A stretch of DNA of 64,000 bases from Patescibacteria group bacterium (GCA_004322365.1 SCTS01000005.1:67697-131696); one strand, 5' to 3'; positions 15,253 to 46,266 are shown, counted from the stretch's first letter. The notes: generated by a model not told the origin, from the letters alone. Numbers and translations are program-made.

Positions 15253-18200
15253 CTATCGAGCGGAAGAGGATTGTGACAAAGGCTGAGCTACTAAGTTTTG
15301 TATGAAAGCTATCGTTGCGGTGCCAAGTATGCCAGTTCCACGAGTAAGACCAAGAGGCGCGAGAATATCAGTAGCGTGCGCTTCCTGGAACTTAACTAAC
15401 GCGTTATAGGTCATTGGACCAAAGTGGTTCGTCTCACTCCCTAATGCACCACTGCCTCGCGGTGCCAGTATGAAACCTTGCGCGTTGAGAAATTTTTGTA
15501 ACTGGCGTACATCTTCTCCAATAGAACCAGCACGCAGAGAACGAGTAAATAGTGCCGTCTGAGAATTTACCGCGACTATATGTTTTTCTGGTGTGCTCGT
15601 TGCGACAGTGTTAGAGACGCTGTCGTTGTTTGTGTTCTTTGGAACAGAATACAGAGGCAGTGTAGGAGCTACTGATCCCTGACAACCACCTTCAGGCAGG
15701 CTACTGTTCCATCCTGGTGACATTGGACCAGAACACCAAAGGAGCCCACCACTTGTACTAGTGCTCGAACTGCTCGACGATTCGGTCGTACCAAACAAAG
15801 CAAAATCTGAAAATGCGGTCGTGCTGCATGTAACTGTTTTAGCTCCCGTGTCGACCGAACAGTCAGAAAGCGCACTCCATGTGGAACTATCGTAACGGTA
15901 GATAAGAAGCGATGTCTCAGTAATTCCAACTACATCGCTCGATGTATAGGAAAGCGTTACAGTAAGAGCGGTTGAAAATGTAGCGAGTGTCGTCGTCGCA
16001 TCAGTGAGTGCAACAAGGTTATATACGGTACTTCCTGCACGCGTCTTACCGCTCACCGTACCCGCAGAAGCAAAGAAAGACGTGCCGTCTAAAAGATGCG
16101 CTTGGAACGTTGCTGAGCTTGATGTTGCAGTGAAGGACGTTGGTACAGTGAGCGTAAGCCTGCCTTCTGTGAGTGTGCCTCCTGCTGTAGTTGTAATAGT
16201 ACCCGCGCCAGTCGAAGATACTACCGCCCCTCCAGTGCAACCGATTGTGCGAAATGTCGCGGCACTACTGGTTGCTGTATTTGATGAAGCGTCGGTGCTC
16301 TCAACATTGTAGTAATATCGCGCGCACGCTTTGAGTCCAGTCAACGTTACAGAGTGGCTCGTTGTGCGTGGTGAGGTGTCCGTCTCTGGCGTCGAAGTTC
16401 CATAACTTGAGATAATGCCAAAATTTACTTTTGTTGAAGCAATTTCGTCAGTCGTCCAAGTAATCGTTGCGGTGGTAGAAGCTGTTGTTGTGGCAACAGC
16501 CGAAATAGCTGTGCTCACATTATCTACAGTAAACGAAACGCTAGTCGAAGTTGCGTAGTTACTTGAAGTATCACGAGCAACCGCAAATGCACTGTGACTA
16601 GCACTGGTGGTTGCCGTTGAATCCCACACAATGCCGTACGTTGATGTGGTATCTTCACTCCCCTGCAACACTCCGTCAACGTAAAACGATACTCCTGCCA
16701 CACCAATAGTGTCGGATGCAGTTGCGGTAAGTGAGACGCTCGCACCTGAAACAGTAGCGCTCGCTGTAGGCGCAGTAAGCGATACAGTGGGCGCCGTCGT
16801 ATCAACTGTCGCTCCATACTCGTACGCACCAATATCAACCGACGCAACTCGCGCGCCACCACGCTGGTCGAGCGTTGGTACCGATATTGATCCGTTTGTT
16901 CCTCCATATCCGCTGTTAACGGCAATAGAAGAAGCGCTGGTAATGGCAAGTGTCTGTGTTTTCAAGACACCATTATCTGCAAGAGTAGAATCTAAGCTGA
17001 GAGTGCCACTGCCACCATTTGAATTAGTAAACGTGCCATCTCCAGAACCTGATGATCCTTGCAAATCGACATAGGTACTGGTAGCTACCGTTATGTTTGA
17101 ACTTGAGTATTTCCCAAAAATGTTCGCGCCATTGTCAGTATAGGTTCCTGAACTGCCTTTGTAGATATCGTAGAAAGAACCAGTAAGTGCAACGCCAGAC
17201 TTATAGTTGCTCGAAATTATATTGTTCTTGAGCTGTACGGTATAGGAAGTATCTGGACTAAACCAAAGACCTGCTCCATTTGCCGTCCCGCCGTTTTGAA
17301 TATCGTTATACGCAATAGTGGAGTTGGTAATGCTACCGCTACCGCTCCTGTATGCCACACCACCACCGCCAACAGTGGCAGACGACGCTTGTTGTGTGTT
17401 GAATGCAACAGTTGAATTAGTAATGTTCATCGGGCCCGTAGTGGTGGTACCACTCCACAATCCACCTCCCTGAGAAACACCCGTGTTGTATGAAATCGTA
17501 CTGTCGATAACCGTGAGCGAACCACCGTTTGTAGAATCCTGCTGAGCTACGCCACCACCATACCCGTTAACATAATTGTTCGTGATGAGCGCTCGCTGTA
17601 TTGTTGTCGTGCCTTGACTATAGATACCACCACCCGCAGAACTTGAACTCGTGATACGTCCATGTCGGATAGTAACATCATTAAACGTAACCACTTTCCC
17701 AGTCGATGTCGTGAACACACGTCGATCACCGGTGGTAGAAGCGGTCGCAGACTGAATGATGGTACTGCTGGCGCTTTGTCCCTGAATAATCAACTCTTTG
17801 CCGATAGTATACCCACTAGTCGCTATGTCCCCTGTCTCTCCTGCATCCGTCCATGTGAATGTGCCCGTAAGATTGAGCGTGTCACCAGCGCTTGCGGATG
17901 TATATCCTTTGTGAAAGCTCGCATACGGGGTACCTGAAGAACCATCTCCCGTCGAATCGTTACCGGTCGAGCTGTTTATATAGAGCGTTGTAATAGTATG
18001 CGATGCTTGCGTGTTTGGGTTGTTCGACGCAGTCGCAGTCTGATATACCTCTGTTCCTGAGGTTACGCCGTTATACTCAAATACTTGAACGATATATGTT
18101 GTGGCACCAGTGAGCCCTGTCACCGTGACGCTCGAGCCTAGTCCTTCATATATTGCGTACCAACCAGACGAACCAATCTGTGTTCCTGAGCCAAAAACTG

Positions 18201-19590
18201 ACGATGCTGTGTATGCAGTGCCATCAACTGGTGACGCCGTACCACTTGATGCAGCTTTCATAAAAACAACACGGCGCGAACCATTGCCTGCAGTCCAACC
18301 CACAGTCATTCCGTAGTATTCAACTGAACTGAACGAGACACCGCTTGCCTGTGTAGAGGGAGCGCTGATAGTAAGTCCTGTCCCGTTGTACTCAAACGAA
18401 CCAATATCAGTCGCACCAGAACGCGATGCGCCACGTTGGTCAAGTGTGGGTACGGTTGACGTTGCACCATTGCTACCGGTTGAACCATTGTTGATAGCAA
18501 TCGAGCCTACAAGAAGTGCCCACGTAGGAGTTGATGTTGCGTTATCGTTTCTACTTGCACCAGTATCGAGATTGAGTGAGCCAGTCGTTCCTACACTATA
18601 CAAAGTATAGACACCATTACCGTCACTGTCCGTCCAATCGCCAGTTCCTGTAAATGATGTACCACCCGGTCGACCGATAATGTTGTATCCGTTGTCGGTA
18701 ATGGTGCCCGAGGATACACGGAGGTCATTATAAGTCGCACCATATGTTGTCGAGGTATTGCCGGCAATGAGTGTATTCTTGAGATACACGCCACCAGTCG
18801 TCTCCATACCAAGTCCACCACCGCCCGCAGCGGTGTTACCAACAATACTCACATTGGTAATACTCATCCAGCCACCACGTACATGCACGCCACCACCATT
18901 AAGGTAGCCACTCGTCGACGTTTGGCGATTCCCATAGATGGTTGAATTTTCCACAACAAAGTAACCGCCCGCAGCGATGTTGTAATCATTCAAAAGACCA
19001 CCGCCCATGTACGAAACGGTGTTGTTATAGACAGATATGCGCTGTGCGGTCGTTGTGCCGACGTTGTCGATACCGCCACCACCACCACCCGCAGTATTGT
19101 TGTTAATTTCACTGTCCGTGATCGTGAGCGTTCCACTATTAGCAATACCGCCACCGTAGTAACTGGTCGAAGTAATGCGACCATGCCGAATGTTCAACTT
19201 ACTCATCGTGACAACAACCCCTGTTGAAATTGTGAATACGCGCCGATCGGCGGTAGTAGAAGCGCTTGCCGCTTGAATATATGTTTGATCACTCCCTTGA
19301 CCCTCAAGAGTTAGGTTCTTCCCAAGTGTATACCCAGTTGTCGCCGCGTCCCCTGTTTCAGTTGCGTCTGTCCAAGTGAGAGTTCCAGTGAGATTGAGTG
19401 TATCTCCCGCACTCGCCATTGTGTAACCTTTATGAAAGCTTGCATATGGGGTACCTGATGAACCATTTCCTGTCGAATCGTTGCCCGTCGAACTATTAAT
19501 GTAAATCGTTGCCGCAGAAGCGACCGCGGGTACTACTATGCAAAATAAAAAAATTACAACAAAAACAACCGTTGCACGGAAGCGACGCAT
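15253..19590 (-). CDS. giant secreted cell-surface protein (1446 aa): signal peptide, two tandem ~500-aa right-handed beta-helix modules, FN3/Ig-like region, C-terminal peptidoglycan-binding (PG_binding_1) domain
   Basis: Start reassigned to MRRFRATVVFVVIFLFCIVVPAVASA (signal peptide) at 19590. Repeated blocks IYINSSTGNDSTGNGSSGTPYASFHKGYT...IRHGRITS and LYINSSTGNDSTGDGSSGTPYASFHKGYT...IRHGRITS. NNTAGGGGGGI-type beta-helix turns. C-terminal GEDVRQLQKFLNAQGF...MTYNALVKFQ is a PG-binding domain. Confidence 0.8.
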   Translation of the reverse strand: MRRFRATVVFVVIFLFCIVVPAVASAATIYINSSTGNDSTGNGSSGTPYASFHKGYTMASAGDTLNLTGTLTWTDATETGDAATTGYTLGKNLTLEGQGSDQTYIQAASASTTADRRVFTISTGVVVTMSKLNIRHGRITSTSYYGGGIANSGTLTITDSEINNNTAGGGGGGIDNVGTTTAQRISVYNNTVSYMGGGLLNDYNIAAGGYFVVENSTIYGNRQTSTSGYLNGGGVHVRGGWMSITNVSIVGNTAAGGGGLGMETTGGVYLKNTLIAGNTSTTYGATYNDLRVSSGTITDNGYNIIGRPGGTSFTGTGDWTDSDGNGVYTLYSVGTTGSLNLDTGASRNDNATSTPTWALLVGSIAINNGSTGSNGATSTVPTLDQRGASRSGATDIGSFEYNGTGLTISAPSTQASGVSFSSVEYYGMTVGWTAGNGSRRVVFMKAASSGTASPVDGTAYTASSVFGSGTQIGSSGWYAIYEGLGSSVTVTGLTGATTYIVQVFEYNGVTSGTEVYQTATASNNPNTQASHTITTLYINSSTGNDSTGDGSSGTPYASFHKGYTSASAGDTLNLTGTFTWTDAGETGDIATSGYTIGKELIIQGQSASSTIIQSATASTTGDRRVFTTSTGKVVTFNDVTIRHGRITSSSSAGGGIYSQGTTTIQRALITNNYVNGYGGGVAQQDSTNGGSLTVIDSTISYNTGVSQGGGLWSGTTTTGPMNITNSTVAFNTQQASSATVGGGGVAYRSGSGSITNSTIAYNDIQNGGTANGAGLWFSPDTSYTVQLKNNIISSNYKSGVALTGSFYDIYKGSSGTYTDNGANIFGKYSSSNITVATSTYVDLQGSSGSGDGTFTNSNGGSGTLSLDSTLADNGVLKTQTLAITSASSIAVNSGYGGTNGSISVPTLDQRGGARVASVDIGAYEYGATVDTTAPTVSLTAPTASATVSGASVSLTATASDTIGVAGVSFYVDGVLQGSEDTTSTYGIVWDSTATTSASHSAFAVARDTSSNYATSTSVSFTVDNVSTAISAVATTTASTTATITWTTDEIASTKVNFGIISSYGTSTPETDTSPRTTSHSVTLTGLKACARYYYNVESTDASSNTATSSAATFRTIGCTGGAVVSSTGAGTITTTAGGTLTEGRLTLTVPTSFTATSSSATFQAHLLDGTSFFASAGTVSGKTRAGSTVYNLVALTDATTTLATFSTALTVTLSYTSSDVVGITETSLLIYRYDSSTWSALSDCSVDTGAKTVTCSTTAFSDFALFGTTESSSSSSTSTSGGLLWCSGPMSPGWNSSLPEGGCQGSVAPTLPLYSVPKNTNNDSVSNTVATSTPEKHIVAVNSQTALFTRSLRAGSIGEDVRQLQKFLNAQGFILAPRGSGALGSETNHFGPMTYNALVKFQEAHATDILAPLGLTRGTGILGTATIAFIQNLVAQPLSQSSSAR

Positions 19591-19877
19591 GGGTAAAAGT
19601 ATAGCAAATTTTAAAAACAAAATTGAGGTATTGAAAGACTTAACAAGAGTGATTCCGATGCTCCACTTGCAAGCTTTTGTTTTGCTCCACAAAAGCTTCC
19701 CTGCAGGTCGAGTCCCGTGCTCCGCTCGTAAGCTCTGTTGTTTGCACAGAGCTTCCCCGCTGTCGCATCAAAGAAAAAGCGGGTAGGACTCGCCTCTCGC
19801 ACTCCTGTGCTCGAAACCTTCACTCCTTCACAGTCGTTGCGGCCCGCGGTTCGAGTCCGTACGCGCGCGGGTACGTA

Positions 19878-19919: not shown

Positions 19920-19921
19920 AG

Positions 19922-20214
19922 CTCCGCGGGTAGGACTCGAACCTACAACCAACTCCTTACACGTGATCCCCTATTACGAAGGGCGTGGACTATATCATCA
20001 TCCGATCTGGATGCGAGGCGCTTCGACCTTTCGGTCTACTCCCTTTCGGGATAGTCTCTACACCTTCTCCAACAAATCGTCAGAGCTTGGCTCGGGATTG
20101 CCCATCCTTTTTATAGGATTAGGGTTTCCCCGAATTCACCTCGTTTTTCAATCCCGATTCCTCGGGAAGGCTGCCTTTGGACAGGGAGCTGCTCTACCAT
20201 TGAGCTACCGCGGA
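19922..20214 (-). tRNA. tRNA gene interrupted by a ~220-nt intervening sequence in the anticodon loop (putative group I intron). Anticodon probably GUU (Asn), alternatively UGU (Thr), depending on the splice junction.
   Basis: On the minus strand: 5' TCCGCGG-TA-GCTC-AATGGTA-GAGC-A-GCTCC-CTGT | ~221 nt | TAA-GGAGT-TGGTT-GTAGG-TTCGAGT-CCTAC-CCGCGGA-G 3'. The exon halves form a canonical cloverleaf. The intervening sequence contains P7-like AGACUA ... UAGUC elements and ends in G before the 3' exon. Confidence 0.6.
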
Positions 20215-20296
20215 ATGTACACAATCAACAGAGTTGATTGGTGATTATTATATACCCTGACTTGATGATTCAGCAAACTTAACACTAGGTGTTATA

Positions 20297-33524: not shown

Positions 33525-33552
33525 GATTTTTGATCCTTTCCTAAAAATTAAA

Positions 33553-33584
33553 AACCCGAGCATTCCGAGCTCGGGTTTTTTCTT
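33553..33584. terminator. bidirectional rho-independent terminator between convergent genes
   Basis: aaaaaCCCGAGCattccGAGCTCGGGtttttt. Confidence 0.7.
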
Positions 33585-33593
33585 ATACTAGAG

Positions 33594-34178
33594 CTAATCA
33601 CCTTCAAATTTTTCCGCACCAGGGCACCCTGGAAACCCAAGATTCTTTGCGGAATAAAATTCATTCACGAAGTATGGTACGTTCACATCGGCAACAAGGG
33701 TGCAAATATCAGCATTAGAAATACCAAGTTTCTCTATAAGGTTCTTAGTTGCACTTCTCCGTACTTCACCTATAGGCTCTTTAAGAATGACCACAATAAA
33801 AAATGTGCCTTCAGGAGAATACAAAATTTCATAAGCGGATTCAGCGGTGGTAGTGCTGACTTCTGAATTAGGAAACCACGATAGAAAAGAACTCGGTGGT
33901 GTGGTGGAGGCAACACCAATATCTTTTGTAAACTCTCGAACGAGAATAGGACCGTTACTGCTCGCTATTTCAAGAGTATTTGGAGGTGGATTCCCTGTCC
34001 CCGCAGGTGTTGTGTTGCCACCTGCCCGAGGGTTCGTACCAAGAAGAGTGCTGACAGGCGGAGTATCGCTTGGCCGAGCAGATGGTACTTGTGCAAGAAA
34101 ATACAAAGTGCCAGTAAACCCTATGAGTGCGAGAGTTGCTACTGCGAGAACTAAGGTGAGTATGTTTTGTTGATTCAT
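33594..34178 (-). CDS. secreted hypothetical protein
   Basis: Start trimmed to MNQQNILTLVLAVATLALIG (signal anchor); Pro/Thr-rich linker. Confidence 0.45.
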   Translation of the reverse strand: MNQQNILTLVLAVATLALIGFTGTLYFLAQVPSARPSDTPPVSTLLGTNPRAGGNTTPAGTGNPPPNTLEIASSNGPILVREFTKDIGVASTTPPSSFLSWFPNSEVSTTTAESAYEILYSPEGTFFIVVILKEPIGEVRRSATKNLIEKLGISNADICTLVADVNVPYFVNEFYSAKNLGFPGCPGAEKFEGD

Positions 34179-34192
34179 GTTTTTATAAAAAA

Positions 34193-35152
34193 TTAGAATA
34201 CGCAGAGACTGTTTACCTGTATGTCCCAATGGGGCTGTGAACCAAATTCTTTGGCGTACACATTGCCACATCGGTCGTTATAGAGTACCGCCCTTTGCCC
34301 TCCCCACGGAATAGCGACACCTCTAGGTGTCCTAGGGTCATACTGAAAATTTTGCTCAATGTAATTATTGAGAGCAGGGTTGTTGTTGCTACGAACATCC
34401 ACTTTAAAACCTGTTGCGTGAGCACCACCAGCGCGCACAGCTGAAGTCACGGTAAATTGACACCCACATCCCTGATGAAGCTCAATCAATTGATCAACGG
34501 TCCGCACTCGTATACCTGCAAGTGATGCACCTCGACTCTGTGGTGCGAAGCATGGAACGGCACCTCCACACACACCAGCTCGTTCGAGTTGTCGAATCGC
34601 TTGGTCGTGAGTGTATACACCCCCTACTGATGCCGTTGGAGAAGGCTGTCCCGCTCCTCCTCGCGTACCACCTGTGACTTGAGGACGAGGGGCAGGTGCA
34701 CCTGGTGCATCTGGGAATGCACCAGAAACAGGAGCAGAAATACAATCAATGTGAGTCCAGATGGTAATATTTTTCCCCGTTAACACCGAAAAAGTAATAT
34801 TCACCAGAAGCCATGCGGTAAGCACAATACATAAGCCAACGAATACATTAATGAACACCCCGTGTGCTTTCTTTACTTGGTCTGGTTTGCTTGCTGCGGT
34901 TACATACAGGATGCCTGCATAGGCAAACATGAGTGTGGCAACAATGACAGAGAAGGCAACAGCGAAGTTAATGACATTGTTTGCAAGTTCAGAAATATCG
35001 CACGCCTTGCACTCTGCCCCCTCACACTGAGGAACTAATCCCCCACCACTCCCACTTAAGAGTGCTGAAGGGTCTTGTTGAACTGCAGCAAATGCCACGA
35101 GTGGCATGAAAAACAATATCGGAAGAAGGAGTATTAATATCTTTTTCATCAC
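34193..35152 (-). CDS. fusion protein: pilin-like N-terminus (signal peptide plus two TM helices, TrbC/VirB2-like topology) and C-terminal M15-family zinc D,D-peptidase (VanY/endolysin-like) domain
   Basis: Signal peptide MMKKILILLLPILFFMPLVAFA, two TM helices, a Pro/Gly linker, then H-x6-D (GGAHATGFKVDV) and a PHWD (xxHxH-like) zinc-ligand motif as in the Hedgehog/DD-peptidase fold. Confidence 0.5.
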   Translation of the reverse strand: MMKKILILLLPILFFMPLVAFAAVQQDPSALLSGSGGGLVPQCEGAECKACDISELANNVINFAVAFSVIVATLMFAYAGILYVTAASKPDQVKKAHGVFINVFVGLCIVLTAWLLVNITFSVLTGKNITIWTHIDCISAPVSGAFPDAPGAPAPRPQVTGGTRGGAGQPSPTASVGGVYTHDQAIRQLERAGVCGGAVPCFAPQSRGASLAGIRVRTVDQLIELHQGCGCQFTVTSAVRAGGAHATGFKVDVRSNNNPALNNYIEQNFQYDPRTPRGVAIPWGGQRAVLYNDRCGNVYAKEFGSQPHWDIQVNSLCVF

Positions 35153-35325
35153 ACAATGAGTATACCCTTGAAAAGCAACTATGAATCTCTACATATGGCT
35201 CTGTGTGATACTTTTTAACCATTCCACACACCTCGAAGAACCGCATATTGACTTTCCTCATAGGAAGCACATGATTTAGAGAGATAGCGCATGATTATTG
35301 GTTTTCTAAACAGAAACTGAAACAT

Positions 35326-35751
35326 ATGGATCGAGATCCAAAGATATCTTTTACACGAAAAGCGAAAGGATTGGGTCTTGCGTTTTTAGGAGCTCTTTCG
35401 ATTGGCTTTGCAGATAATGCGGGTGCGCAGAGTGCACCACGAAGATCTTGGGAATATGGAGACATGAGTCCTGCAAATGCAGAATACTGCCGAAGAGCCG
35501 CAGAAACGGAAACTAGAGTGGCAAGAGAAGGTAGACATCCCAATATGGGTAACTTGTGTAGTTTTTATGATTTACCTGCGGATTTACGCTCAAGAGATGA
35601 GGCACTCTATGCTAGAGAAGCTGCAGCAGAGAGCCCGGCAGATAGAGCGCGCAGACAAGCTCAAGATGCGAAACTGCAGAAAGAGGAAGACGAACTTTTT
35701 AGGTACTGTGAAAGCGTAAACTTCGTAGGCGAGAGGTGCCGTGGTTTATAA
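35326..35751 (+). CDS. small secreted hypothetical protein
   Basis: Signal peptide LGLAFLGALSIGFADNAGA; Arg/Glu-rich with four Cys. Confidence 0.4.
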   Translation: MDRDPKISFTRKAKGLGLAFLGALSIGFADNAGAQSAPRRSWEYGDMSPANAEYCRRAAETETRVAREGRHPNMGNLCSFYDLPADLRSRDEALYAREAAAESPADRARRQAQDAKLQKEEDELFRYCESVNFVGERCRGL

Positions 35752-35770
35752 AACTTTCATTAGTTGCTGT

Positions 35771-37153
35771 TTATTTAAGAGGAGGCTTCGTGGCAGTCTT
35801 CCGAATTGCGTTAATCAAGCTAGCCGAATCAAAATAGTTAGACAGCTTGTTTTCCCATCCAACTTTCGATGTATCTACATCTGGGTCAACTCCCCTACCT
35901 TCAACGGGCTGATTATCTTCCCGAAGTGTAATGGAGTTCACGAGAAGCAGTGAGTAGCTAGTAGTAGGATCTATAACGGTCTTCAATGGATACGTATTTT
36001 CAACAGTACCCCACCCTCGTGTGGTCCCACCAACCACATGGGCGCGGTTAAATTTCTTGAATGTTGCCGCAGTTAATTCTGCAGTGGACTGTGTCATTGC
36101 ATCGGTAATAATAGCGATTTCAGTGTAGCGCTCTACAAGTGGGAATTTTTCTTGAGTTGTCCGCTCCACCTGATACTCTCCTTGATGAAATAAATCAAAA
36201 GTATATTGATTGGCTCCCACAAAAAGACCAAAGAAAGCAGGCAGAAAATCCAGTGATCCTCCAATATTCCCCCTCAAATCTAAAACCATACTACTGAGAC
36301 CTGGCGTTGTTGATGCCGCATCAACCGCAAGACCAAATTCCCGAAGAGTTGTTGGGGATATTTTATTAATATGAAGATAGAGCGTAGAGCCGAGCGTATG
36401 CGGAAATACTGTAGGTTCTATACCTGCAGAGTCATACAATGCCTTTGAATTATTATTAGTGAGGACTGACTGTGCGTAGGTTGCCACTGCAAGCGCTGCC
36501 TTATCTTCGGTTGAAGTTGCATTTGCAAAAATCGCCGCCTTCTTCTTATATGCCGCCGTCACCTCCGCAGACGTAGCACCTTTTTTGAGTCCAAGATTTT
36601 GATATAAATCTTTTGATGAATCAATGTTGCTCACATTTTCTCTAAGTGCCACCTCTTCTTTTTTTGAAAGAATGCCATCGCGACCTGCAGGAGGGAGGTT
36701 ATACAAAACAACGGCACCAATATTCAGAGCTATTTGTCGTTTATTTTCAGTGGAAGTTGCCGATCTAAAGGCGACCTCAAGCATCTTTGAGGTGCCCGCC
36801 CTATCAGGAGTAACTAATACTGTTGTTGTGGCTGTAACTTTCTCAACGGATAGTCGAAACAACTCTGGCAACTTTAAATCCTCAGGCCTCATCCAATAAT
36901 TAGTAGTTATGGAGTCGTATACCTCCATATCAAAACGAACAAACACATCTACTTCTTCTGGTGTTTGGTACTGTATTGCTGACTCAGACGACTTCGCATG
37001 CGTCCACACATATGCGCCACTAGAGGAAAGTGCAATAACTATTCCCACCAATATGAGAACCAACTGATGTCGGAGAATAAATAATCTCACTGTATGTAGT
37101 TCTGGAATATTAAAGCCCATCTGTGAGATACTACCATGTGAATCATGGACCAT
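35771..37153 (-). CDS. S41-family C-terminal processing peptidase (tail-specific protease-like)
   Basis: MVLDLRGNIGGSLD and TQSTAELTAATFK match the S41 catalytic region. N-terminal TM; a J-domain-like fragment DLYQNLGLKKGATSAEVTAAYKKKA. Confidence 0.7.
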   Translation of the reverse strand: MVHDSHGSISQMGFNIPELHTVRLFILRHQLVLILVGIVIALSSSGAYVWTHAKSSESAIQYQTPEEVDVFVRFDMEVYDSITTNYWMRPEDLKLPELFRLSVEKVTATTTVLVTPDRAGTSKMLEVAFRSATSTENKRQIALNIGAVVLYNLPPAGRDGILSKKEEVALRENVSNIDSSKDLYQNLGLKKGATSAEVTAAYKKKAAIFANATSTEDKAALAVATYAQSVLTNNNSKALYDSAGIEPTVFPHTLGSTLYLHINKISPTTLREFGLAVDAASTTPGLSSMVLDLRGNIGGSLDFLPAFFGLFVGANQYTFDLFHQGEYQVERTTQEKFPLVERYTEIAIITDAMTQSTAELTAATFKKFNRAHVVGGTTRGWGTVENTYPLKTVIDPTTSYSLLLVNSITLREDNQPVEGRGVDPDVDTSKVGWENKLSNYFDSASLINAIRKTATKPPLK

Positions 37154-40784: not shown

Positions 40785-41762
40785 CTAGCGACTGGTGGTT
40801 GATTGAGAACCAGCAGGCAAATCTACATTCGAGACATGGGTTTCGGCAGTGAAGTAAAAGGATCCTATGGCAAGACCGAGGAGCAATAATCCTCCGCCAA
40901 TCACTCCCAAATATTGCACTTTCACATGCATAAATATAGCGAGGAAAAGCAAGAGCGCTATGAGTCCTATCAAACCACCGAGTATGGAGAGGAGCGTTTG
41001 ATTCGGTGATGCCGCGGCAGATACAAGACCTTCTACAATTGGATTATTTGCTATCACAGGTAGAGATGGACCGGTTTCAGAACCTAAAACATTTGAAGAT
41101 ACCTTATCGGAGGTGGCAAGCTCTGTTGCAGGCACAGTCTTTGCGGGAATTGTTTTTGTTGAAACAGGAGTCGAAGCTGATTTTGCCCCCGATGCAGGGG
41201 TGGCAAAAAACTGAACAACGAAGGTAACATCTTTTCCTTCATACACTCCTTGAGCTGTGCCGATGCCAATGCGTGTAAATTCAGACTTTACAATGTTTGC
41301 TCGATGCGTTGGCGACTTCATCCATGCCTCCTCAACATCTTTAGATTCGGTAAAGTTAACGGCCAAGTTCTCGCCTGCATATGAGTAGTTATACCCAACA
41401 AGATCAAGCCAATGCCATGGAGTTGTTCCATCTGGCGCTACATGAGCAAAATACCCCTTTTCAGCCATGTCAGCCGCTTTCTTTTGCGCTGCGACGGTAA
41501 GAAGTGGCTCTTCAATAAGCGTGCCGACGCCGTTTTTCGCACGATCATCATTGGTGAGTGCCGTAAGTACCCCCGGCAACACCGCCGCCAAGAATCCTGT
41601 CTTATTAAAGACAAGAGTCGTATGAACAAAATATCCTATTTGAAGAAACACTAAAAGAGCGCCGACGGCTATCGCTGTTTCTTTCCTGAAAAAATGAGGG
41701 TGATACTTATTTCCAGCTGTCGGGATAAAGTAGTTTCTGATGTGCCAGAAGAATTTTTTCAT
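40785..41762 (-). CDS. CAP/SCP (PR-1-like, YkwD-type) domain protein with N- and C-terminal TM segments
   Basis: GYFAHVAPDGTTPWHWL ... GENLA ... WMKSPTHRANIV ... TRIGIG are CAP-domain motifs. Confidence 0.65.
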   Translation of the reverse strand: MKKFFWHIRNYFIPTAGNKYHPHFFRKETAIAVGALLVFLQIGYFVHTTLVFNKTGFLAAVLPGVLTALTNDDRAKNGVGTLIEEPLLTVAAQKKAADMAEKGYFAHVAPDGTTPWHWLDLVGYNYSYAGENLAVNFTESKDVEEAWMKSPTHRANIVKSEFTRIGIGTAQGVYEGKDVTFVVQFFATPASGAKSASTPVSTKTIPAKTVPATELATSDKVSSNVLGSETGPSLPVIANNPIVEGLVSAAASPNQTLLSILGGLIGLIALLLFLAIFMHVKVQYLGVIGGGLLLLGLAIGSFYFTAETHVSNVDLPAGSQSTTSR

Positions 41763-41772
41763 TTTTTTTTAA

Positions 41773-43707
41773 TTATGGCAATGACTTGCCGAGTGACGCG
41801 CTAACATTTGCAATCACAGTAGCATCTGCGCCAAACGACTGGAGAAGCTCAAGTATTGCCGATACCTGAGTATCACTGAGTGTTTGTGTATGTACTGGTG
41901 TTTTCTGTACCACTCCCTTATTTAGGACCTCACGTGTCATTGGGCCGACAATGCCGACAGCAGGAAGCGCGTTCTTTTCCTGATACGCCTTCACACCTGC
42001 TTTTGTTGCGGTGCCGAAATAGGAAGTTACGAGTCCAGAATATACACCTTCACTCGTGAGCCTCTCTTGAAGAGCTTTCACATCATCACCTTTAGAACCC
42101 ACTCTAAGAGTACGGGTAAAATTATAGGTAGATGCACCTAAGACACTACCAATGTTTTCTGTGACTGGAACAGTTTCTACTGGTGTCGCTATGACCGCGA
42201 CCGGAGTGGCTACAATCGAGGAACTAGTATTTAGTATAGACACACTAACACCACCGATAATTCCGCCACCGCCACCACCGCCACCGCCACTTGGTGCAGG
42301 TGTGGGAGCAGGTACATGCACGCTAGCAAAGTAAGATGCTTTTGTTGCTTGAAATGAACAGAGACCGTTTGCCACTATACAGGTTGAGGAAACGAGCCCG
42401 TCTTGTGTCCAACCACTAGCGAGCGCGAGCGAGCGATACACCGTAAGCGTTGTCCCGTTAAGAGCTGTACCAACATACATGTTGATTGTTATGGCTTGTG
42501 AAAATTCGAGCCCTATCCCAGAGATCCCCCATTGCAGTGCGCCGTCAATCACAACACCTGTTGCTACATTCGAAAGTGTACCGCCATCAATGCGCGCTAA
42601 AGAAATATCTCCTGTAGATAGCGCCGTGACATCACTCCTCGTTATGGAAGTACCTACGGGAATTGCGATTGTCGATGTACCGACACCTGAAGCAACGGAG
42701 AGTGTTGTCGTGGCGGTTTGATCAATAGGTAAAAGAACTAAAGGGGAGGAAGATGCAACAAACGAAAGAAGTGGATTGGCGAACGCAACAGTAAACGCCG
42801 AGGAACTCGCTGAAGTGTTACCAGCTGAGTCAAGAGCGTTCACCGTAAATGTGTGATTCCCTCCCGTAAGCCCCCCAATAAGGGATACACAGTCGGCCAG
42901 AGATACGCCATCAAGTACACATCCAAGAGTAACGGTATTTGCGTCAGTTGCAGACACGCTCGGGGTTAGTGTTTGACCCGTGGTCGTAGCGTTTTCAGGT
43001 GTAGTGATTGAAATAAGTGGTACAGCGGTATCAATATTTGCTACAGCAACAGCATTTGCGCCAGTGTTTCCTAACGAATCAGTGAAGGTAAACGTAAACG
43101 AGCCGTTAGTCGTAAACAGATGTGCGTTGGTATTAATAGGTGAAAAAACTTCTGTTGTGGTTGTTGAAAGAAGAGCACACACAACTTTGTTTGTCGGAGT
43201 AGTGGAACTGTATGAAAGAAATTCCGCTGAACGACTTACACACTCAGTTGAGTTAGTGGCACTTGGAAGAAGAAAGAATACAAACTCGGGTGTCGATGCA
43301 ATGGTCTGCTTTGTTACCGTGACTGAAAGGGCTGCTAATACATTCCCTTGAGTTGCAACAGTTCCTAAAGAAACGGTAATGACGCCGTCAACAAGCGATG
43401 TTGTATCAAAGGACAGTGAATATGTTTTAGAATCGAGCGAAGTAAAGACTTTTTCACCAGTGAGTATGGTTCCCACAGAATCTACCAAAGTCACTGTAGA
43501 AGTTCCTGAGCGAAATGTGCCACTAATGCCATCCAAGCCAGAATTTCCACTTATCACTATTGTGGTTTGATTGAGAGAGGTAATGGTGTTTGATCCCCCA
43601 TCAACCACCAATGATGGTGTGGCAGCAAATGTTGGAGTTGCAACGAAACAGAGAATAAGCGCGGAGCCAAAAGCTCCATATACAACCATTCGACGGAAGC
43701 CGTGCAT
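41773..43707 (-). CDS. large secreted cell-surface protein with Ig-like repeats, poly-Gly linker and C-terminal peptidoglycan-binding domain
   Basis: Signal peptide; SGGGGGGGGIIGG linker; C-terminal RVGSKGDDVKALQERLTSEGVY...AGVKAYQEKNALP is a PG_binding_1 domain. Confidence 0.65.
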   Translation of the reverse strand: MHGFRRMVVYGAFGSALILCFVATPTFAATPSLVVDGGSNTITSLNQTTIVISGNSGLDGISGTFRSGTSTVTLVDSVGTILTGEKVFTSLDSKTYSLSFDTTSLVDGVITVSLGTVATQGNVLAALSVTVTKQTIASTPEFVFFLLPSATNSTECVSRSAEFLSYSSTTPTNKVVCALLSTTTTEVFSPINTNAHLFTTNGSFTFTFTDSLGNTGANAVAVANIDTAVPLISITTPENATTTGQTLTPSVSATDANTVTLGCVLDGVSLADCVSLIGGLTGGNHTFTVNALDSAGNTSASSSAFTVAFANPLLSFVASSSPLVLLPIDQTATTTLSVASGVGTSTIAIPVGTSITRSDVTALSTGDISLARIDGGTLSNVATGVVIDGALQWGISGIGLEFSQAITINMYVGTALNGTTLTVYRSLALASGWTQDGLVSSTCIVANGLCSFQATKASYFASVHVPAPTPAPSGGGGGGGGGIIGGVSVSILNTSSSIVATPVAVIATPVETVPVTENIGSVLGASTYNFTRTLRVGSKGDDVKALQERLTSEGVYSGLVTSYFGTATKAGVKAYQEKNALPAVGIVGPMTREVLNKGVVQKTPVHTQTLSDTQVSAILELLQSFGADATVIANVSASLGKSLP

Positions 43708-45576: not shown

Positions 45577-46266
45577 ATGGAACAAAAACAAAACCTTTCA
45601 ATCCCTGTCGCTATCGTACTTGCTGGAGCTTTAATTGGTGGCGCTCTCTTTTTTATCGGACGCACTGACACGCCAACCACAAATACAAACACACCGACCG
45701 TTGCACAAAAAGATATTCCCGCAGTCACTTCTGCAGACCACATTATTGGAAGCATTGACGCACCAATAGTCATTGTTGAATACACCGACCTCGAGTGTCC
45801 GTTTTGTAAACAGTTTGACGGCACAATGAAGCAAGTGGTCAAAGCATATGGCGGTAAGGTTGCGTGGGTTGTTCGTAACTTTCCCCTTCAACAGCTCCAC
45901 CCTAACGCACCAAAAATTGCTCTCGGGGCAGAGTGTGCGGCGGCGCTTGGTGGCAATGCAACATACTTCAAATTCATTGATTCTGTATTTACGCAAGCAC
46001 CAATAAATACATTTTTCGACATAACAAAACTTACCGTAACAGCAGAAGGAGTTGGAGTTGATGCGAAGAAATTTAATGCCTGCGTTATCGCTGGAACCTA
46101 TCAAGATAAGATAAGTAAAGAATTCAACGATGCAGTTGCTGCAGGAGGTCAAGGAACTCCCTTCTCAGTCGCCATTACAAAGGATGGAAAACAATACCCT
46201 ATTCCTGGCTCTCAGCCGTTGGAACAACTCAAAACAATCATTGATGGAATCTTAGCGGGAAAATAA
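45577..46266 (+). CDS. DsbA-like thiol:disulfide oxidoreductase (thioredoxin fold)
   Basis: N-terminal TM and an ECPFCKQF (CxxC) active site. Confidence 0.75.
   Translation: MEQKQNLSIPVAIVLAGALIGGALFFIGRTDTPTTNTNTPTVAQKDIPAVTSADHIIGSIDAPIVIVEYTDLECPFCKQFDGTMKQVVKAYGGKVAWVVRNFPLQQLHPNAPKIALGAECAAALGGNATYFKFIDSVFTQAPINTFFDITKLTVTAEGVGVDAKKFNACVIAGTYQDKISKEFNDAVAAGGQGTPFSVAITKDGKQYPIPGSQPLEQLKTIIDGILAGK

Follow-up and report, generated by a model that had tools for sequence, protein, structure and literature searches.

What does a protein do that joins a conjugative-pilin-like membrane module to an enzyme-like domain, and how did its gene come to lie where it does? The question is raised by positions 33,594 to 37,153 of a 64,000-nucleotide stretch of DNA (the window) from a Patescibacteria group bacterium (GCA_004322365.1 SCTS01000005.1:67697-131696), where an earlier note had read a 319-residue protein, hereafter the fusion, as a TrbC/VirB2-like pilin joined to an M15 peptidase within a horizontally acquired, GC-rich island. 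The architecture itself is well supported and consists of a signal peptide, a VirB2-like hairpin, a flexible linker and an extracytoplasmic enzyme-like domain, together with a co-transcribed partner. The reading that we prefer, to which we give about even chances, is that the fusion is a membrane-tethered putative peptidoglycan peptidase that does a VirB1-like job from a VirB2-like pilin anchor, in the service of a pilin-type or type IV secretion system (T4SS)-type surface apparatus. An identical protein is held in NCBI/ENA (TAK59017.1, EPO14_01715, “hypothetical protein”, from a Patescibacteria metagenome-assembled genome), and every organism-named entry among the 57 homologues of the fusion belongs to Patescibacteria/Paceibacterota. 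The open reading frame (ORF) was called from a GTG codon that is directly followed by an ATG at 35149, giving 318 residues from the ATG; this ATG, which matches the 318-residue NCBI protein, is probably the true start.

The pilin-like character of the N-terminal region, as proposed in the earlier note, was borne out by a match to the Pfam family PF18895 (T4SS_pilin) across residues 53-118, with a score of 41.4 bits against a cut-off of 26.6 (E 1.5e-10) and an alignment that spans profile positions 5-69 of 71. Relatives of the fusion also touch PF04956 (TrbC). Hydropathy analysis places hydrophobic segments at residues 1-26, 56-88 and 93-126, and the AlphaFold2 model shows a helical hairpin with helices at residues 47-85 and 91-125, joined by the basic loop TAASKPDQVKKAHG. 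A basic N-terminus and an A-F-A motif can be read off the signal peptide, which is presumably cleaved after residue 22, and the combination of signal peptide and two-helix topology places the C-terminal domain outside the membrane. Conservation within the protein is highest in the hairpin, with 10 invariant residues in the homologue alignment and up to 68% identity among paralogues that carry unrelated C-terminal domains. C51 and C137, located just beyond either end of the hairpin, are both invariant and probably form a disulfide that staples the two extracytoplasmic ends together. The Pro/Gly linker that had been noticed after the hairpin is likewise present, with Pro, Gly and Ala making up 47% of its residues and with predicted local distance difference test (pLDDT) values below 50 at residues 139-143 and 158-176 of the model.

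The C-terminal domain is a probable member of the LAS/M15-like superfamily, an assignment that draws on its conserved motifs and on a set of weak matches that all point in one direction. Modelled alone, the domain reached a pLDDT of 92.4 and a predicted template modelling (TM) score of 0.88. It keeps H245-x6-D252, E302 and H308-W-D310, and has six cysteines. In 27 diverse and 146 representative sequences, H245, G248, D252 and E302 show little or no variation; position 310 is occupied by D or H throughout, and position 308 by His in all but one subclade, which has I or L. In the alignments used for profile searches, H245 is found in at least 90% of the sequences of A1, A3 (close family) and A5 (broad family), and is invariant in A8 (noisy N-termini). 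The resulting family consensus, ITGGTE-x-GH...SH-x2-G-x-K-x-D-x-R...E-x2-H-W-D, with E-x3-H-x-H variants, follows the pattern of LAS enzymes, H-x6-D with E...H-x-H. The two proposed zinc-ligand motifs pointed out in the earlier note are present in the window protein and conserved in its homologues. In a sister paralogue subclade (P0008-P0011, P0013-P0015 and P0017), the His of the upstream motif is kept and H308 is replaced by I or L, a pattern reciprocal to that of the window subclade.

Comparison with known families led toward the same superfamily. A profile-profile alignment (hhalign) of the C-terminal domain with the Peptidase_M15_4-type (PF13539) domains of paralogues gave a probability of 72.5% (E 3e-5). 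Against the PDB, the single match of the A3 profile was a VanY-like D-Ala-D-Ala carboxypeptidase, aligned on S-x-H-x2-G-x-A-x-D, while 20 of the 22 matches of the A5 profile were Hedgehog N-domains, aligned on the zinc-site motif at E 0.17-1.6; the A8 profile found nothing. A Foldseek search of the PDB with the domain-only model gave as its best match the C-terminal domain of VldE (PDB 9flk; E 0.067, probability 0.60, TM 0.35-0.44), and a search of BFVD returned a phage tape-measure protein (E 0.017, probability 0.90) and a “Peptidase M15A” protein (E 0.16). VldE MT3 is a LAS/M15-like L,D-endopeptidase with the ligands H301, D308 and H375 (PMC11667670). No model in Pfam, NCBIfam or PHROGs matched the domain, and in Pfam searches with 23, 27 and 146 of its relatives the M15 and Hedgehog families never rose above threshold, with VanY and M15_4 appearing once each among the sets of 23 and 27 at E 0.045-0.19. 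The assignment to M15 that had been made by eye thus stands in its general direction, toward LAS/M15/Hedgehog folds, and is not borne out at the level of the named family, as no M15 Pfam model matched and none of the matches was significant. Membership of M15 proper is not shown.

An exhaustive profile search revealed that this domain belongs to a large family: when grouped at 50% identity, it comprises 2,812 clusters under a threshold of E <=0.001 and 2,105 under the stricter E <=1e-10, with further members retrieved down to E 1e-28 (A3) and 5e-48 (A5). Among the best 146 members, 37 carry T4SS_pilin, 4 TrbC, 6 PG_binding_1, 3 PG_binding_3 and 1 SH3_3, and single proteins carry WXG100, eCIS_core or Peptidase_C39. 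The repeated fusion to wall-binding domains points to peptidoglycan as the substrate and is the best indirect evidence for it. One member, P0244, is 2,193 residues long, with the C-terminal-type domain at 1461-1594 and additional endolysin-like PHROG matches, and a Peptidase_S8 fusion is also present in the family. Together with the WXG100, eCIS_core and Peptidase_C39 fusions, these proteins suggest a further use of the domain in secreted toxins against bacteria. The family additionally contains standalone secreted members from actinobacteria-like organisms (P0061 and P0068) and standalone secreted fungal members of 150-180 residues (P0059, P0062, P0066 and P0071, from Septoria, Cercospora and Actinomortierella), the latter matching the bacterial profile at E ~1e-27; these could reflect cross-kingdom transfer of a wall-peptidase-like domain. 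The UniRef label “Ecp2 effector domain” on the fungal protein P0062 was rejected, because no Pfam Hce2 match was obtained at E <=1 and also because no KP4-like protein is among the listed fold matches, KP4-like being the fold of Ecp2/Hce2 proteins (PMC12382754). A zinc-peptidase-like family of approximately 2,800 clusters, spanning Patescibacteria, actinobacteria-like organisms and fungi, is absent from the protein-family libraries that were searched.

The gene that directly follows the fusion, 14 nucleotides past its stop codon, encodes a 194-residue protein (TAK59016.1 in NCBI) that the earlier note had listed as a secreted protein flanking the fusion. The ORF is present as described, and its product is better regarded as a conserved, membrane-anchored and co-transcribed partner: an N-terminal membrane anchor and a low-complexity spacer precede a conserved C-terminal domain with two invariant cysteines and the motif KEPIGE-x-RR...CTL...LGFPGCPGA. 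A terminator-like hairpin follows the partner gene (Table 1), and from this layout the two genes are shown to form what reads as a co-transcribed operon. The partner has 43 homologue clusters, of which all organism-named ones are from Patescibacteria, and profile searches of Pfam, NCBIfam, PHROGs and the PDB yielded no match. A homologue of the partner lies directly downstream of pilin-hydrolase fusions in L002, L004, L008, L009, L010 and L013.

A locus survey drawn from GTDB representative genomes comprised 50 loci. Approximately 35 of these hold long forms like the fusion (about 16 with LAS-like, one with M15_4 and at least 10 with SLT-type cargo, the others having no assigned cargo), and 14 hold short pilins, which mostly occur two or three to an array. 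Partner homologues occur directly downstream of long forms 18 times, in 17 of the 50 loci, with LAS-like, M15_4, SLT-type or unassigned cargo, and in no case after short pilins. A role for the partner as an enzyme-specific immunity protein was rejected on this basis, since it accompanies LAS, M15_4 and SLT cargo alike, and its presence with all cargo types points to a partner of the pilin module or the linker. All surveyed loci are from Patescibacteria with the exception of L046 (JAESSZ010000115.1, a 9-kb contig labelled “Nannocystaceae”), a label that is probably a binning error.

The survey and the paralogue searches establish a modular family, not noticed in the earlier note, of pilin-module proteins with interchangeable wall-hydrolase domains. 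The same pilin module is joined to Peptidase_M15_4 in P0016, P0029 and L020 (P0016 and P0029 pass PF13539), and to SLT_3 or SLT in P0019, P0025, P0053, L033, L044, L053-L055 and L057; no SLT or CHAP domain was matched by Pfam in the window fusion. In L013 (7295-9669), two tandem genes have near-identical first ~145 residues and different C-terminal domains, one SLT_3 and the other LAS-like, with a partner homologue between them, which looks like cassette-style domain swapping. Genomes hold two or three such paralogues, so that peptidase and glycosidase chemistries are both covered. No paper describing pilin-hydrolase fusions or the 194-residue partner was found in the literature searched. The family is undescribed and is a novel variant of familiar parts, not a categorically new system.

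How the gene came to lie in this region can be answered more firmly, as the fusion locus was vertically inherited. The earlier note had estimated a guanine-plus-cytosine (GC) content of 50-55% for 34.2-35.8 kb and suggested horizontal acquisition. The computed value for 34200-35800 is 0.465, at the 85th percentile among segments of 1.6 kb, and the mean of the whole window is 0.442 (46.5 versus 44.2%); the fusion gene itself has a GC content of 0.483 (93rd percentile), and a 15-20 kb block of the window is richer than the claimed island at 0.486. The observation in favor of an acquired island is a local maximum of 0.557 at 34400-34699, the top 300-bp value of the window, and only these ~300 bp reach such a level (55.7%), the other parts of the claimed island being lower. 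Third-position GC (GC3) of the fusion gene is average, at 0.381 versus 0.385 +/- 0.04 for 47 window ORFs, with the rise in GC confined to codon positions 1 and 2. In the linker, GC is 0.541 and GC3 0.245; the bump stems from the Pro/Gly/Ala composition of the linker and is therefore not foreign DNA. For genome scanning in general, such a linker can mimic an island.

Gene order leads to the same conclusion. In Parcubacteria bacterium Greene0714_7, whose fusion is 74% identical in protein sequence, the genes to either side are arranged as in the window for more than 16 kb. The shared order runs through CAP, RNase H-like, HisRS, a 188-residue gene product, a 72-residue gene product, methyltransferase, S41 and the small protein to the fusion and its partner, and continues with RRM, VTT, GtrA, ABC transporter, methyltransferase, amidotransferase, GT4 and S24. 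Remoter orthologues have a different housekeeping neighbourhood in common (ClpB, L33, IPPT, peroxiredoxin, ParB, RelA, TopA and DprA), and a Pfam scan of window ORFs found no mobility genes flanking the fusion locus. On codon-position GC and synteny, recent acquisition as a GC-rich island was rejected, and its remaining probability is negligible.

Evidence for a connection to secretion systems comes from more distant loci. In L012, the protein P0079, which has a LAS-like C-terminal domain, is encoded one gene downstream of a VirB4-like ATPase in a cluster beside dnaA; PrgI and TraC-like genes precede the ATPase, and two genes beyond P0079 comes an SLT gene. Another distant relative, P0067, heads an array of two short pilins. 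These contexts fit published observations on T4SSs: in Candidatus Southlakia, epibiotic growth requires the peptidase and lysozyme genes that directly follow virB4, and in Saccharibacteria it requires the T4SS and pilin arrays; dnaA is often found close to T4SS clusters, and VirB1 is missing from most Patescibacteria that have VirB2 homologues (PMC12102498).

Taken as a mechanism, the preferred reading would run as follows. The fusion would be exported by the Sec pathway and its signal peptide cleaved, leaving the pilin hairpin in the membrane with both ends outside and the short basic loop in the cytoplasm. The linker of ~50 residues would carry the disulfide-rich, 140-residue domain into the wall space, where zinc would be held by H245, D252 and D310, with D310 replacing the second His of HxH. 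E302 and H308 are the candidate catalytic residues with which the domain would cut peptide stems or cross-links of peptidoglycan. The partner, a bitopic membrane protein, may work with the fusion by recognising the conserved pilin module and not the catalytic domain. The outcome would be local opening of the wall, as by VirB1, fused to a VirB2-like subunit, and the window protein would be one cassette of a Paceibacteria family whose members carry LAS, M15_4 or SLT/SLT_3 domains. Zinc binding, catalysis, the C51-C137 disulfide, an interaction between partner and fusion, and a connection to a T4SS or pilus are all elements that we infer.

A number of results weigh against this reading, and they concern both the apparatus and the enzyme. 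The neighbours of the fusion are housekeeping genes, and there is no second pilin-module ORF in the window. T4SS Pfam domains were absent from the scanned window ORFs and from seven annotated related loci, and phmmer searches with the T4SS genes of L012 (a VirB4/PrgI/TraC set from the candidate phyla radiation, CPR) gave no match in the window or in 62 loci; the earlier note had suggested looking elsewhere in the genome for VirB4, VirD4 and VirB6 genes, and none turned up in the window or among the examined related loci, to which the search was confined. The two-helix anchor of P0079 in L012 is not detectably homologous to the window pilin module, and Foldseek with the full-length model placed no VirB2 or TraA pilin within the top 50 matches. 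On the enzymatic side, VanY, Peptidase_M15_2, M15_3, M15_4 and HH_signal did not match the C-terminal domain at curated thresholds, PDB profile searches with A1, A3, A5 and A8 yielded nothing significant (E >=0.17), hhalign against human SHH-N gave a probability of 7.8% over 33 motif columns, and Foldseek overall gave no significant fold match (E >=0.0087, TM 0.35-0.45). In addition, the window subclade has SAVRAGG in place of the near-invariant GGTE-x-GH, with R240 and no His there, and E302 and H308 are separated by five residues in the window protein versus two in the E-x2-H of the family. With the first motif lost and the spacing lengthened, the domain could be a weak or inactive enzyme.

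The main rival to a role in a surface apparatus, which we consider possible and clearly less probable, is that the fusion is a housekeeping autolysin whose hairpin is a mere anchor drawn from an abundant CPR pilin family, with no T4SS or pilus role; alongside its SLT paralogues, and under the control of the partner, it would act as a “space-maker” that allows the cell's own wall to grow and divide. The housekeeping surroundings, with positions that are stable and syntenic across relatives, are what this explanation would predict, as is the finding that no T4SS genes lie near the fusion in any close relative. The two or three paralogues per genome supply the peptidase and glycosidase that a minimal autolysin set needs, and one paralogue lies near FtsW, MraY, S11 and VanY genes. 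What this explanation accounts for less well is the hairpin, which is conserved beyond the need of a simple anchor, in its 10 invariant residues and in its 68% identity between proteins with differing C-terminal domains, and the occurrence of relatives at the head of short-pilin arrays and, for a distant one, in a T4SS cluster. Less probable again is that only the enzyme is missing, the C-terminal domain being catalytically dead in the window subclade and acting as a peptidoglycan or ligand binder, an adhesin or a sensor on a pilin-like anchor; to this we give a slim chance. The near-invariant E and H of GGTE-x-GH are lost, the E-to-H spacing is altered and a sister subclade has lost H308 instead, and Hedgehog N-domains are LAS folds used mainly for binding; H245, D252, E302 and D310, however, are all kept under selection across the subclade.

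A further explanation directs the hydrolase outward. As a host-directed weapon, the pilin module would polymerise into or cap a T4SS-type pilus, and the hydrolase would breach the wall of the host bacterium in episymbiosis, an explanation that we regard as improbable. A true Pfam pilin module with a strongly conserved hairpin, a long flexible linker and cassette-like swapping of “warheads” on identical pilin modules are all in keeping with it, as is the fusion of the C-terminal domain family to the toxin-delivery modules WXG100 and eCIS_core. A load of 180 C-terminal residues on each subunit would, however, be sterically hard to fit into known VirB2/TraA filaments, T4SS gene linkage is lacking in the window lineage, and a self-directed role explains the same data. 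The essential part of T4SS and pilin arrays in the epibiotic growth of Saccharibacteria counts in its favor (PMC12102498). In its most general form, the proposal would make the Paceibacteria VirB2-like pilin a modular scaffold, on which LAS, M15_4 or SLT/SLT_3 warheads are brought with the help of the partner to the surface or tip of a pilus, so that the filament digests the host wall; this form is likewise improbable.

Table 1 Features of the fusion locus, with coordinates counted from the first letter of the window
Feature	Coordinates	Strand	Details
Fusion gene	34193..35152	-	319 residues from GTG; ORF call
Signal peptide (residues 1-22)	35087..35152	-	MMKKILILLLPILFFMPLVAFA, then A; within hydrophobic segment 1-26
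VirB2/TrbC-like pilin module (residues 53-125)	34778..34996	-	Two transmembrane helices and short basic loop
Pro/Gly/Ala-rich flexible linker (residues 126-178)	34619..34777	-	From composition; accounts for the local GC peak
C-terminal globular domain (residues 179-319)	34196..34618	-	Divergent LAS-type (M15/Hedgehog-like) putative zinc peptidoglycan peptidase
Partner gene	33594..34178	-	194 residues
Terminator-like hairpin closing the two-gene operon	33550..33580	-	12-bp stem with 6 G-C pairs, then T-run; 14 nucleotides past the partner stop codon
Divergent small protein	35326..35751	+	141 residues; signal-peptide-like N-terminus
S41 protease, membrane-anchored, C-terminal processing type	35771..37153	-	460 residues; Pfam PF03572

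The four ORFs called in this region by the earlier note are all present (Table 1). Its identification of an S41 protease was confirmed by a PF03572 match at residues 258-427, with 68.8 bits against a gathering score of 24 (E 5.5e-19); the protein scores under the NCBIfam equivalog cut-offs. A weak resemblance to a J-domain is seen at residues 180-245 of the protease, between the N-terminal anchor and the S41 domain: Pfam DnaJ gave E 1e-4, which falls short of its cut-off, and several NCBIfam DnaJ models gave E 4e-5 to 0.1. The S41 gene adjoins the fusion only in the window and in the collinear locus L009, and not in L002, L004, L008 or L010. As adjacency is confined to the collinear relative, the protease was rejected as a functional part of the module and is a syntenic neighbour outside it. 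The divergent 141-residue protein had no family match in Pfam, NCBIfam or PHROGs; it is 52% identical to the product of the same-position gene in L002 and 38% to that in L009, and with genes in L010 and L008 it shows weak or doubtful similarity. It appears loosely associated with the fusion and is possibly a third component of the module.

The other window genes are those of an ordinary chromosome, including rpoB/rpoC, rpoD, dnaG, hisS, glycolytic genes and genes for an L,D-transpeptidase, BacA and a DsbA-like protein. No rRNA genes are present in the window, and a standard tRNA scan of the window detected none. A group I intron was identified on the minus strand at 19967-20245 (Rfam RF00028, 68 bits, E 4e-15), and ARAGORN, run with its intron option, called a tRNA-Thr(UGU) at ~19921-20214 on the same strand with a 221-nucleotide intron in the anticodon loop, the boundaries of the two predictions differing by ~30 nucleotides. 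Three envelope proteins are encoded on the minus strand: a 1,479-residue protein with Big_7, a purple-acid-phosphatase N-domain and PG_binding_1 (15253-19692, inside the GC-richest block of the window), a 644-residue protein with PG_binding_1 (41773-43707) and a 325-residue protein with a CAP domain and a C-terminal anchor (40785-41762). These may share a wall- or host-interaction repertoire with the fusion. The DsbA/thioredoxin-like protein is encoded on the plus strand at 45577-46266 (Thioredoxin_4, E 1e-20), and its gene is consistent with disulfide formation in the exported, many-cysteine proteins of the locus.

Patescibacteria account for a large part of the diversity of bacteria and appear to depend on co-opted T4SS and pilin arrays to live on their hosts. 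A pilin-borne hydrolase with a dedicated partner would offer a testable answer to the question of how these organisms open walls, whether their own or those of a host, where VirB1 is mostly unrecognisable (PMC12102498).

Each part of the fusion can be set against a known counterpart. As in PF18895 T4SS_pilin, VirB2 and TrbC proteins, a signal peptide precedes two hydrophobic helices with a short basic loop between them and both ends outside. Those pilins, however, consist of the pilin module alone at ~70-190 residues, whereas the fusion, at 319, is ~3x longer owing to a C-terminal extension of ~195 residues. PF18895 relatives form short-pilin arrays, with short forms of 112-190 residues in other genomes, and the window fusion has no virB4, T4SS genes or pilin array beside it. 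With the LAS enzymes (VldE MT3, M15 enzymes such as VanY and Peptidase_M15_4, and Hedgehog N-domains), the C-terminal domain shares the H-x6-D motif and the association of its family with peptidoglycan-binding domains. A Glu and an H-x-[H/D] strand motif after H-x6-D, and an alpha/beta sandwich with the motif-bearing strands in corresponding positions, appear to be further points in common. It differs from them in lacking a significant sequence or fold score, in having Asp where their third ligand is His, and in its six cysteines. Within its own family, most members are standalone secreted proteins of 150-200 residues or carry other N-terminal modules, and in its first motif the window subclade departs from the other members.

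Functional counterparts are VirB1 and the wall hydrolases of Gram-positive T4SSs, PrgK of pCF10 and TraG of pIP501 (cited in PMC12102498). As is predicted for the fusion, these hydrolases are anchored in the membrane, act outside the cytoplasm and are believed to make local openings in the wall for a surface machine, and paralogues of the fusion carry the same SLT domain class. In the window fusion, however, the anchor is a pilin-like hairpin where theirs is a single helix, the putative enzyme is an LAS-type peptidase in place of SLT or CHAP, and the gene is dispersed in the chromosome with a partner gene of its own.

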